The notes: a model not told the origin generated them from the sequence alone. A stretch of DNA of 64,000 bases from an uncultured Gammaproteobacteria bacterium (GCA_964497535.1 CAZCCG010000001.1:291425-355424); one strand, 5' to 3'. Counted from the stretch's first letter, positions 10,965 through 13,706 are shown. Numbers and translations: made by a program.

Positions 10965-13706
10965 ATGTTAGGTAATTTATTCGGCCAAAAAAGACTGGAT
11001 CAACAACCAAACCAACCAGGAGTTTCTGCAACCCCGTCGGTGGTATCTCCTGTAGATAAAGCAGTACAAGAGTCCAATTCAGCACCACCGGCACAGCCAT
11101 CTGTCCCATCAGCTCAAAAAACAGTTGTAGGCTCGTCTATGGAACCCACACGGCGGGGAGATCTGTCAGCATTGTCACATTTGGATTCTCGTACCACGGC
11201 CGTGTTATCTCACGCCCAGGCGGAAGCAATGCGTATAAAACAAGCATTCATAGAACCTGATACCGTCTTATTTGGTTTGTTATACGATGAGGAAGTATTT
11301 AAATTACTAGAACAATTTTCTGTGGATGTTGCAAAGCTATCACGGGAATTACAGGCAAAAGAAAAACCGGGAACGTTTACCGGTCAACCAACCTTAAGTG
11401 ATCCTTCAAAACAACTTTTTGAGCAAGCATTCAGTAATGCAAAAAATCGGGCAAGTGATTTCATCAGTCCGGAAGATCTTTTAATCTGCCTATTTGGGCC
11501 CAATCTTTCAACTGGTACTATTCTAAAAGAACAGGGGTTGGCTAAAGAAAAAGTAGAGGAAAAACTTTCCAAAGCTACCGGCAGTTCGTATGGGAAAAAA
11601 TCAATGCTTGATAAATATGGTATTGACCTTACAGAGCAAGCAAAAGAAGGAAAACTTGATCCGATTGCAGGACGTGATAAAGAAATTGACCGGCTTGCTC
11701 ATATATTATTGCGGCGTACCAAAAATAATCCGATTATTATCGGTGAAGCGGGAACCGGTAAGACAGCTATTGTGGAAGGATTAGCAGAAAACATTGCGGC
11801 AGGAAAGGTACCTAAAGAGTTGTCAGGAAAACGAATTTTTCAAGTGGATATTGCTTCTTTAGTTGCCGGTGCATCACACCGGGGCGAATTTGAAGAACGG
11901 CTCAAAGGGGTAGTAAATGAGGCAATGGCATCTGCAGGCCAAACTATATTATTTATTGATGAAATTCATACATTGATGGGTGCAGGAGGAGAGGAAGGAG
12001 CTTTGGATGCATCAAATATTATTAAACCATATTTGGCTCGCGGGCAACTACAAATTATCGGAACAACTACAACAAGTGAATACCGAAAATATTTTGAAAA
12101 AGATAAAGCATTTGCCAGACGATTTCAACCTGTCCTTTGTGAGGAACCAAATGAAGAAGTCGCTATTGAGATGCTCAAGATCTTGCGGCCGAAATATGAG
12201 AAATTTCATAACGTCAAAATTCCTGATTCCGCGTTGGAAGATGCAGTAAAATTATCAAAAAAATATATTGGAGAACGGTTTTTGCCTGATAAAGCGGTAG
12301 ATTTGATAGATGAAGCAGCAGCAGATGTGAAACTAAAACAGTCTTCAGGACAATCAACCTCGGATGAAGTAACAAAAGAACAAATTCAGCAAGTAGTAAG
12401 TAGTTGGACCGGTATTCCGGTAACAAAATTGACAGAAGATGAAAGTGCAAAACTCTTAAAACTTGAAGATCGTATTCACGATCGTTTGATCGATCAAGCA
12501 GAAGCAGTAGTCGCTGTTGCAGAAGCAGTTCGACGGGGAAGAATTGGGCTTGCTGCTGCCAATCGACCGATTGCTTCATTTATTTTCTTAGGACCTTCAG
12601 GTGTTGGAAAAACAGAATTGGCAAAAACATTGGCTGAAATTCTCTTTGGACGAGATGATGCGATGATCAGATTGGATATGAGTGAATACATGGAAAAACA
12701 CGAAGTCGCAAAGTTGATTGGTGCACCCCCAGGATATGTAGGTTATGAAGAAGGAGGACAGTTAACTGAAGCAGTTCGCACCAAACCATATTCTATTGTA
12801 CTGTTTGATGAAGTTGAAAAGGCACATCCGGATGTATTCAATATGTTACTCCAGCTTCTAGAAGACGGGAGACTTACTGATAATAAGGGTAATACTGTTT
12901 CATTTAAAAATACAATTGTTATTTGTACTTCAAATATAGGAAGTGCATTGATTCAGCAAAAGCTGGGTGAGCAGGAAAAAGGAAAGCAGTTAACACCTGA
13001 AGAAGAGAATAAGAGCTTTGCGCAGTTATCAGAGTTAGTAACTGCAGAACTGCGAAAATTCTTCCGGCCGGAATTATTAAATAGATTTGATGATATTGTT
13101 ATCTTTAAACCGCTGCGAAGACAGGACATGGCGGCAATTGCAAAACTTGGAATTGAAAAAACATCAAAACTACTAGGAGAACAAAATATAAAATTGACAA
13201 TTACTGATAAAGCATTGAATCAGCTTGCTCTTGAGGGATATGACCCAGTATATGGGGCACGACCGCTTCGCCGATTGATTCAAACAGCAATTGAAAATCC
13301 TATCGCTCTGGCAATTATCAGTAAAAAATTTGTAGCCGGTGATACAATTACGATTGATTATGATGACACAAAAAAAGACTTTGTTTTTACCAAACAGCCG
13401 TCTGTCCAATCTCCTCCACCTGGTCAGCCGGGACAAAATAATTCTTCACCAGTATCAGCCCCTGCGCAGACAAACCCAACCGATGTTCAATCTTCTGAGC
13501 AGCAAGCTCAGGTAACTGATCCTACTGCGCTTCCACAGCAACCTGATAATCAATTGCCCCCGCAGCAACCGATGCCGGACGCTACAAATACGGCTCAAAC
13601 GGCTCAGCCGTTGATTGTGCAACCTCCAGTGGATAATGGAGCACCTCAAGAAAAGCCTACGGTTACGGATCAAGGAACACAAATGCAGCCTACCAATCCA
13701 TCCTAG
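10965..13706 (+). CDS. Hsp100/Clp-family AAA+ unfoldase (ClpC/ClpA-like) with a Clp_N domain, two nucleotide-binding domains (NBDs), essentially no M-domain, no recognisable ClpP-docking IGF/LGF loop, and P/Q-rich terminal tails
   Basis: Clp_N repeats are present. NBD1 has Walker [10 protein letters not shown], Walker B ILFIDEIH and an arginine pair (AFARRFQ). NBD2 has [19 protein letters not shown] and a GYVGY pore loop. The NBD1-NBD2 linker is about 40 aa. The NBD1 pore loop reads [14 protein letters not shown], so His replaces the usual Tyr. Confidence 0.9.

Follow-up and report, generated by a model that had tools for sequence, protein, structure and literature searches.

A Patescibacterial-type Hsp100 without M-domain, ClpP-docking tripeptide or pore-loop-1 tyrosine

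To which branch of the Hsp100 proteins does a double-ring member belong when the features by which these proteins are sorted are missing, and what could such a protein do in the cell? This question is raised by an Hsp100 gene carried by a stretch of DNA of 64,000 nucleotides (nt) (GCA_964497535.1, CAZCCG010000001.1:291425-355424), which was analysed over its full length and is called here the window. Hsp100 proteins are usually sorted into partners of ClpP (ClpA, ClpC, ClpE and ClpX), which have a docking loop, and disaggregases (ClpB, ClpG and ClpL), which have an M-domain. Moreover, an aromatic residue in the first pore loop (pore-1) is regarded as near-universal in AAA+ translocases. A previous examination of the DNA by itself, i.e., the sequence-only reading, had proposed that the protein departs from all three rules. 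The present analysis leads to the conclusions that: (i) the coiled-coil M-domain and the ClpP tripeptide are absent, as confirmed by alignments and by a predicted structure; (ii) both ATPase rings are shown by their motifs to be catalytically complete, and nucleotide-binding domain 2 (NBD2) keeps the tyrosine of GYVG; (iii) the protein is probably, and we hold this with moderate confidence, a functional double-ring unfoldase or disaggregase that is independent of ClpP, free of M-domain control and part of the heat-shock regulon.

The gene product is, judged by its domain matches, a class-1 Hsp100, i.e., Clp_N, NBD1, NBD2 and D2-small. The Pfam matches, in amino acids (aa), are Clp_N (84-130), AAA (257-370), AAA_lid_9 (397-473), AAA_2 (534-711) and ClpB_D2-small (717-797). 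A protein identical to it (P0001) is found on an NCBI contig. The profiles and the PDB chains of ClpB and ClpC align with it in two stretches and skip the M-domain (about 100 residues in the case of ClpB). Against ClpC, query residue 477 pairs with ClpC residue 423 and query residue 450 pairs again with ClpC residue 455. ClpA aligns collinearly in one stretch, over query residues 76-798 for the profile TIGR02639 and over residues 13-747 of PDB 1ksf. The distance from PDKAxD, at the end of NBD1, to the Walker A motif of NBD2 is 102 aa; representatives of the ClpC type have about 157 aa here, those of the ClpB type about 217 aa. The AlphaFold2 model was built from a 68-sequence alignment and has a mean predicted local distance difference test (pLDDT) score of 77. 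At the junction it has a lid helix (442-460), a loop of 10 residues and a second helix (471-482), and the coiled coil is absent. The absence of the M-domain, claimed by the sequence-only reading, is thus corroborated by the split alignments, the short spacing and the model. Among relatives the M-domain site is taken up by a ClpC-size coiled coil or by inserts of low complexity, 17-250 aa long; within the M-less family it is minimal or occupied by such inserts.

The ClpP-binding tripeptide is missing as well. The FAGFGG segment of Staphylococcus aureus ClpC pairs with KQLTPE of the window Hsp100, and a hydrophobic-Gly-hydrophobic motif is found in the NBD2 loop of 0 of 120 homologs, the loop being variable in sequence and length. 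Counts upon 120 refer here to the best 120 database matches, which are 60-73% identical to the window Hsp100 and which, where names are given, belong to the Patescibacteria group, Levybacteria or Levyibacteriota. Careful alignment, by which the previous claims were to be checked, and the model disclose neither an IGF-type loop nor an M-domain. No ClpP gene was found among the open reading frames (ORFs) of the window by profile scans, nor in the fetched flanks of relatives. With an approximate Bacillus subtilis ClpP query, tblastn detected nothing in the window and nothing in 85 loci, each of which is a small part of a genome.

In pore loop 1, Ser304-His305 are aligned with the Lys-Tyr of ClpC and ClpB, the window Hsp100 reading S-H-R (codon CAC of His305 at 11877-11879). 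GASH is present in 118 of the 120 homologs, the remaining two having GASK and GASR. The replacement of the tyrosine by His is therefore real and, as the sequence-only reading had asked, conserved in relatives; yet it is a widespread trait of Patescibacteria and is not peculiar to the window gene. In alignment A1 (68 sequences at 63-69% identity), about 230 columns are invariant, every catalytic residue included. Among them are the Walker A and Walker B motifs of the two rings, the Arg fingers of NBD1 (R385 and R386), the sensor-2 motif GARPLRR, GAPPGYVG, and the pore-1 segment A301-E310 with both S304 and H305. This invariance of Walker A/B, Arg fingers, sensor-2 and GYVG across the 68 homologs shows that the Hsp100 is under purifying selection.

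None of the NCBIfam class models accepts the protein. It scores below the cut-offs for ClpB (TIGR03346: 910.7 vs. 1232.1, the top NCBIfam score; PRK10865: 764.5 vs. 1417), ClpA (TIGR02639: 718.4 vs. 993.15; PRK11034: 530.5 vs. 1350), ClpV/TssH (TIGR03345: 698.5 vs. 884.95), ClpK (696.7 vs. 1900) and ClpG (685.6 vs. 1900). No type VI secretion genes, i.e., the context of ClpV, were found among the window ORFs. Against PDB chains the scores are 711 bits for ClpC, 693 for ClpB and 480 for ClpA. In a Foldseek search of the PDB, ClpC (top), ClpB and Hsp104 are the sole matches; their TM-scores are low owing to a different inter-domain pose, and the sequence result is not extended by them. With these scores and with the defining features missing, the protein can be assigned neither to the ClpB class nor to that of the ClpP partners represented by ClpA and ClpC, in agreement with the sequence-only reading. 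It is best described, as far as sequences tell, as a ClpA-like architecture on a ClpC/ClpB-type sequence, minus the ClpP loop that defines ClpA and ClpC. In databases its homologs are called «ClpB», «ClpC» or «Clp protease ATP-binding subunit», which is misleading. That the protein is a ClpA ortholog was considered and rejected, sequence affinity and sister groups indicating a ClpC-type ancestry.

The origin of this combination was traced by a family survey, in which an HMMER search of 1.84 billion cluster representatives was followed by feature extraction and a neighbour-joining tree. The M-less proteins with Ser-His form one clade and the M-bearing ones are adjacent. The sister clusters P0125, P0126, P0127 and P0129 (the last named Gottesmanbacteria) keep a ClpC-size coiled coil (e.g., LPAISLPEEIKSIQVKLKRLETEKKDAEKMGD) with a spacing of 157 aa, as does the Hsp100 of the Roizmanbacteria locus L011. 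Pore-1 His is already present in the M-bearing P0126, P0127, P0129 and L011; P0125 has Lys. No ClpP motif was found in the NBD2 loop of P0125, P0126 and P0127, i.e., those that are readable. Since M-bearing sisters already have Ser-His and no ClpP motif, the ClpP loop and the tyrosine were lost first and the M-domain was deleted later.

Wider searches extend this picture. The search seeded with P0127 gave 120 proteins (Woesebacteria or Roizmanbacteria where named), with Ser-His in 119 of them, the M-domain spacing of 157 aa in all that are measurable and, in most, long insertions at the ClpP-loop site. The search seeded with L048 gave a family of Dojkabacteria and Nomurabacteria with an M-domain in all and without ClpP loop in 117/120; its pore-1 residues are SH (70), KH (6), KF (25), KY (18) and KL (1), His being thus present in about 63%. 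It must be noticed that L048 is labelled Saccharibacteria and that its close homologs are Dojkabacteria. Both L011 and L048 come from a contig scan with the Hsp100 protein, among whose listed matches most are ClpC of Firmicutes and Actinobacteria and these two were useful. Among representatives, His at pore-1 is found in 14 proteins, all of which are without ClpP loop (14/14), and in 0 of the 53 that have the loop. In this sample, His thus occurs only where the ClpP loop is absent, which suggests that a strong grip by NBD1 is needed chiefly for degradation coupled to ClpP. Nine M-less representatives, in the ClpC radiation, keep both the ClpP loop and the aromatic residue. Taken together, the loss of the ClpP loop and the change from Tyr to His are old and widespread in Patescibacteria, and the deletion of the M-domain is a later event in one Levybacteria-type subfamily of Microgenomatia. 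The results also suggest that the combination M-less, loop-less and His may have arisen more than once, the neighbour-joining tree being too crude to decide.

Some relatives have features of their own. P0177 (Eremiobacteraeota), P0249, P0244 and P0128 are distant Hsp100s, M-less and loop-less, with KH or GH at pore-1, and P0177 does not belong to Patescibacteria. In P0126, P0127 and P0393-P0511 (Woesebacteria and Roizmanbacteria), inserts of up to several hundred residues are localized exactly at the site of the ClpP-docking loop, and the insert of P0126 contains repeated '...VTLGGRxW...' units. From such long inserts in M-bearing sisters, the former docking loop may be viewed as an insertion hotspot or as the site of a new domain. 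P0373-P0376 (Nomurabacteria-type) have a CxxC...C zinc-ribbon-like N-terminus (MLCEKCKEREA...LCK), recalling ClpE and ClpX.

The sequence-only reading had called the protein minimal, with tails rich in Pro, Gln, Ser and Thr and an N-terminal extension of about 95 aa. The composition of the tails stands (21% Pro and 20% Gln in the C-terminal one), the length does not: a complete and confidently modelled Clp_N domain (aa 73-203 in the AlphaFold2 model) begins at about aa 73, which leaves about 72 aa for the N-terminal extension. «Minimal» is overstated for a protein that has a whole Clp_N domain and tails with conserved terminal motifs. In the N-terminal extension, aa 7-59 have a pLDDT below 50. 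The extreme N-terminus has the consensus M[LF]G[NK][LI]F.Q[KR][KR] (in short MLGNLFxQKK), with G3 conserved in 115, L5 in 110 and F6 in 112 of the 120 homologs; M1, G3 and L5 are invariant in A1. The sister families have the version M[AS]G[FL]FDFI[KR]K, and the motif occurs once in the window. At the other end, G[TSAVGM]xM[QA] is found within the last 25 aa of 37/120 homologs, vs. 0.6 expected from shuffles. Both tails are thus predicted to be disordered tethers bearing short conserved terminal motifs. The idea that tails rich in Pro and Gln are peculiar to the window Hsp100 was rejected: such segments are present in 8 of 40 window proteins, mostly exported ones.

In the reading preferred here, that of a ClpP-independent unfoldase or disaggregase, the ancestor would be a Patescibacterial ClpC-like Hsp100 in which the ClpP loop had already been lost and the pore-1 Lys-Tyr had become Ser-His. 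The Levybacteria-type subfamily of Microgenomatia would then have deleted the short ClpC-type M-domain. The protein would assemble as a hexamer, with the NBD2 ring threading the substrate and the NBD1 ring, lined by His305, gripping more weakly or with a different tuning. As the M-domain is absent, there would be no repressing belt and no M-domain resting assemblies, and DnaK or adaptors of the MecA type could not dock through one. Targeting and control would be shifted to the Clp_N domain and to the tethered hydrophobic-basic motif of the N-terminus, and the unfolded substrate would be released for refolding, not for degradation. The location of the gene downstream of hrcA-grpE-dnaK-dnaJ suggests that it belongs to the heat-shock and proteostasis regulon. 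In ClpB, ClpG and ClpL, mutants of the pore-1 tyrosine retain substantial or partial disaggregation and pore-2 is essential (PMC8129007, PMC11006417). ClpL and ClpG are autonomous, without ClpP motif and with short, non-repressing M-domains only, and the C-terminal extension of ClpG is disordered (PMC8129007, PMC11006417).

Several points weigh against this reading. In ClpB the M-domain is both the docking site of Hsp70 and the repressing belt, and it is essential for disaggregation through the recruitment of Hsp70 (PMC8129007); a natural M-less protein may thus not disaggregate without other targeting. The Clp_N domain of the window Hsp100 is an ordinary one and has no specialisation for binding aggregates such as that of the N-terminal domain (NTD) of ClpL or of N1 of ClpG. 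The controlling inverted repeat of chaperone expression (CIRCE), searched for as TTAGCACTC-N9-GAGTGCTAA with up to 3 mismatches (<=3), has no match anywhere in the 64-kb window, so that heat-shock control of the Hsp100 is an assumption; the operator of HrcA may be divergent in this lineage. A near-consensus promoter, TTGACA-17-TGnTATGAT, is localized at 3702-3730, upstream of hrcA; promoter and terminator scans of the window did not rise above shuffles. Lastly, the genes of a pilin-like protein and of a large membrane protein are always found between dnaJ and the Hsp100 gene, and a membrane-anchored paralog after it. From these neighbours, the Hsp100 could have a membrane-linked job instead.

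The gene order hrcA-grpE-dnaK-dnaJ, pilin-like gene, large membrane protein, Hsp100 and paralog is common to five genomes, i.e., the window, L001 (GCA_026004395.1), L002/L003, L085 and L088 (GCA_029260965.1). The orthologs of the paralog adjoin Hsp100 in L001, L085 and L088 and are 9 kb off in L002. Across these loci, orthologs are identical at 37-44% for the large membrane protein, 44-63% for the pilin-like protein and 44-49% for the paralog. In the M-bearing relatives L084, L086 and L087 (n = 3), the context differs and the paralog is absent within 10 kb; L086 has a T4SS_pilin gene directly downstream. The large membrane protein of the window (827 aa) is made with a signal peptide and crosses the membrane several times by its predicted segments; its long cytosolic tail contains about three helical repeats of the type 'EKIANP...'. 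No usable Pfam match was obtained for this protein (E = 1), nor for the N-terminus of the paralog; a weak match to TrbL was found in its ortholog of L002. In Microgenomatia, VirB6 homologs are reported to be scarce, «suggesting extreme sequence divergence» (PMC12102498), and the 827-aa protein may be this «missing», highly divergent VirB6.

The paralog has a degenerate NBD1, with GTGKE as Walker A, ISDFE as Walker B and the Arg fingers lost, and its pore loops (GAGDQS and GAKPGEGNERG) are without aromatic residues. From these features it looks like a membrane-anchored pseudo-ATPase. Its listed ORF opens with TTG, the true start being probably an ATG about 36 codons further in. Being collinear with the Hsp100 and also M-less, it was probably derived from it by duplication.

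The subtilase directly downstream of the Hsp100 has long Pro/Thr/Ser linkers, Cys-rich repeats and an SdrD_B-like domain. It is probably exported, because it has an N-terminal hydrophobic segment and matches to a pro-domain. The protease neighbour of the Hsp100 varies among loci: a subtilase in the window, a faint Peptidase_M64 in L002 and none in L001, L085 and L088. Elsewhere in the window, positions 29874-30998 (+) encode a Lon-like AAA+ protein of 374 aa (AAA and Lon_lid) from which the protease domain is absent, the next gene being that of RNase J. It is the second AAA+ protein of unfoldase type in the window without a proteolytic partner domain.

Table 1. Positions in the window of the Hsp100 gene, of its domains and motifs, and of other genes
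Feature	Position	Strand	Basis or remark
hrcA	3772-4503	+	Pfam
grpE	4531-5034	+	Pfam
dnaK	5015-6931	+	Pfam
dnaJ	7064-7981	+	Pfam
VirB2-like T4SS_pilin gene	8029-8418	+	Pfam T4SS_pilin, E = 6e-8
827-aa polytopic membrane protein	8445-10928	+	Stops 36 nt ahead of the Hsp100 start
Hsp100 gene	10965..13706	+	ATG start, 913 aa plus stop; ORF list, Pfam, NCBIfam
N-terminal motif (hydrophobic core, then basic residues)	10965..10994	+	Homolog consensus
N-terminal low-complexity tether (aa 11-60), then short conserved helix (aa 61-70)	10995..11180	+	pLDDT; Q/S/P-rich
Clp_N-type N-domain (aa ~73-205)	11181..11579	+	Pfam Clp_N; eight helices, pLDDT >90; aligns with ClpC N-domain from residue 5
NBD1 (AAA1) and lid	11607..12344	+	Pfam; motifs invariant in 68-sequence alignment
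NBD1 Walker A, GEAGTGKT	11742-11765	+	Motif coordinates
Pore loop 1 (aa 301-313)	11865..11903	+	Ser304-His305 in place of usual Lys-Tyr; alignment
NBD1 Walker B, ILFIDEIH	11946-11969	+	Motif coordinates
NBD1 Arg fingers, ARRFQ	12114-12128	+	Motif coordinates
NBD1-NBD2 junction (site of M-domain in ClpB/ClpC)	12330..12374	+	Split alignments; short loop in model
NBD2 (AAA2)	12462..13109	+	Pfam AAA_2
NBD2 Walker A, GPSGVGKT	12591-12614	+	Motif coordinates
Pore loop 2, GAPPGYVG	12720-12743	+	Present in 120/120 homologs
NBD2 Walker B	12795-12818	+	Motif coordinates
NBD2 loop (site of ClpP-docking tripeptide in ClpA/ClpC/ClpX), motif absent	12930..13085	+	Alignment to S. aureus ClpC
D2-small domain	13113..13397	+	Pfam ClpB_D2-small 717-797; model
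Sensor-2, GARPLRR	13254-13274	+	Inside D2-small domain
C-terminal tail (~aa 812 to 913), P/Q/T/S-rich	13398..13703	+	pLDDT <50 from 823 to 913
GTQMQP near C-terminus	13674-13691	+	Match to G[TSAVGM]xM[QA]
Subtilase (S8), fervidolysin-like pro-domain	13722-16448	+	Directly downstream of Hsp100
Membrane-anchored Hsp100 paralog, M-less	16677..19199	+	N-terminal transmembrane helices; 37% identity to Hsp100 over 586 collinear residues
Subtilase (S8), fervidolysin-like pro-domain	57195-58757	-	In the window

The neighbours lead to another view of the Hsp100, i.e., that of the motor of a membrane-associated module in which the paralog would serve as anchor or adaptor and to which the VirB2-like pilin and the VirB6/TrbL-like protein would also belong. 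By analogy with ClpV in type VI secretion and with HSP101 in the Plasmodium translocon of exported proteins (PTEX), this module would act at the envelope on pilin subunits or secreted substrates, extracting, unfolding or delivering them. We consider it rather unlikely. The four genes are orthologous and keep their order in the five genomes, the membrane-protein gene is separated from Hsp100 by 36 nt, the M-less paralog is collinear and probably duplicated from the Hsp100, and the M-bearing L084, L086 and L087 have neither the arrangement nor a paralog within 10 kb (the pilin gene downstream in L086 being noticed). VirB6 is moreover reported as scarce and divergent in Microgenomatia (PMC12102498). 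On the contrary, the 827-aa protein has no significant Pfam match and its link to TrbL is one weak match of an ortholog; no VirB4 or VirD4 ATPase was found nearby in ORF scans of the window; and the upstream dnaK operon favours general proteostasis. Pilin-like genes are also very abundant in Patescibacterial genomes (PMC12102498), so that their adjacency to Hsp100 might be explained by phylogenetic inertia inside a single order. The stronger proposal that the Hsp100, paralog, pilin and VirB6/TrbL-like protein form an unrecognised AAA+-powered envelope machine, as an extension of the dnaK operon, is quite unlikely. If it were true, the Hsp100 would have lost its M-domain, and acquired a first ring lined by His, in adapting to dock on that membrane complex.

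The Hsp100 might, in another explanation, be a DnaK-dependent disaggregase, in which the N-terminal MLGNLFxQKK is bound by the substrate-binding domain of DnaK and replaces the contact through the M-domain, bringing the hexamer to aggregates coated with DnaK. Rüdiger et al. are reported to have described, in 1997, a DnaK-binding consensus with a core rich in Leu and Phe and with basic flanks, and the composition of the motif would be that of this classical consensus. At the extreme N-terminus the motif is conserved, the sister families have it too, and the neighbourhood of the dnaK operon is found in 5/5 genomes of the M-less subfamily. Nevertheless, the sisters carry both the motif and the M-domain; the motif thus predates the loss of the M-domain and did not arise as its replacement. 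Targeting to a membrane, docking of a partner or autoinhibition as a pseudo-substrate would be equally plausible roles for it, and we regard the role of a DnaK handle as quite doubtful. The Hsp100 could also feed ClpP or another peptidase through a non-canonical docking element, e.g., a conserved terminal motif. The M-less architecture is that of ClpA (with the single-stretch match to TIGR02639), the nine M-less representatives with a ClpP loop show that such proteins exist in the ClpC radiation, and subtilase genes are near in the window. As the tripeptide is in the canonical loop of 0/120 homologs, the loop is variable, neither the window nor the flanks of relatives disclosed ClpP (with an approximate query for tblastn), and the neighbouring protease is not conserved and probably exported, this explanation is very improbable. 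Finally, a decaying relic with little or no function, under relaxed selection in a reduced genome, would agree with the reduced genomes of Patescibacteria and with the accumulation of low-complexity inserts in the tails and where the M-domain used to be. It is disfavoured, and in our opinion hardly credible, by the more than 120 distinct clusters (at 90% identity) found at 60-73% identity, by the invariant columns that include every catalytic residue, by Ser-His, which is invariant and not drifting, and by the conserved synteny.

Full-text literature searches disclosed no description of a Patescibacterial Hsp100 variant, of a natural His at pore-1 or of an M-less and loop-less Hsp100. In the TM7x transcriptome paper, the mentions of ClpP, ClpB and ClpX concern host genes, and the survey of type IV secretion in Patescibacteria does not mention Clp proteins or chaperones (PMC12102498). 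The window Hsp100 is thus an undescribed variant within the known Hsp100 paradigm, not a new kind of machine. Its family breaks together the rules of the docking loop, of the M-domain and of the pore-1 aromatic residue, and yet it is strongly conserved across a bacterial order, the change of Tyr to His spanning much of Patescibacteria. It represents a natural «delta-M» experiment on the need for an M-domain and for the tyrosine of NBD1, and on the targeting of an Hsp100 without them. It also bears on proteostasis in ultrasmall epibiotic bacteria with reduced genomes.

The comparison with known systems places the protein between several classes. ClpC of B. subtilis and S. aureus (6em8, 3j3s, 7abr) is the best match by sequence and by fold, with Clp_N, two AAA modules and D2-small in common. 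However, ClpC has a short coiled-coil M-domain (~50-60 aa) and a VGF/IGF/AGF ClpP loop, which the window Hsp100 has not, and its pore loop 1 has K-Y where the window Hsp100 has S-H, in addition to disordered N- and C-terminal extensions. Without M-domain, the latter would have no contact of the MecA/McsB type through one and no M-domain resting state as in ClpC. ClpB/Hsp104 (1qvr, 6qs6) shares the absence of the ClpP loop, the GYVG of NBD2 and a gene encoded with the DnaK system. On the contrary, the long coiled-coil M-domain that ClpB carries within the small subdomain of NBD1, used for Hsp70 docking and repression, is wholly absent, and of the aromatic residues that ClpB has in both rings (KYR in NBD1 and GYVG in NBD2) the window Hsp100 keeps that of NBD2. 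ClpA (1ksf, 6w1z) has the same direct junction of NBD1 with NBD2, without M-domain, but its IGL ClpP-docking loop is absent here and its sequence is much less similar than those of ClpC and ClpB. A possible parallel is p97/VCP, a type II AAA+ protein whose first ring (D1) is without the pore aromatic residue and has a histidine lining the pore, the second ring retaining its aromatic residues and doing the work; p97/VCP belongs to another AAA+ clade and its domain organisation is unrelated. ClpL and ClpG/ClpK are similarly without ClpP motif and without long repressing M-domain, and ClpG has also a disordered C-terminal extension. They differ by keeping a short M-domain and specialised aggregate-binding N-terminal domains (ClpL NTD, ClpG N1), in place of which the window Hsp100 has an ordinary Clp_N. 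By analogy, ClpL and ClpG would nevertheless be the systems closest in function to the window Hsp100.

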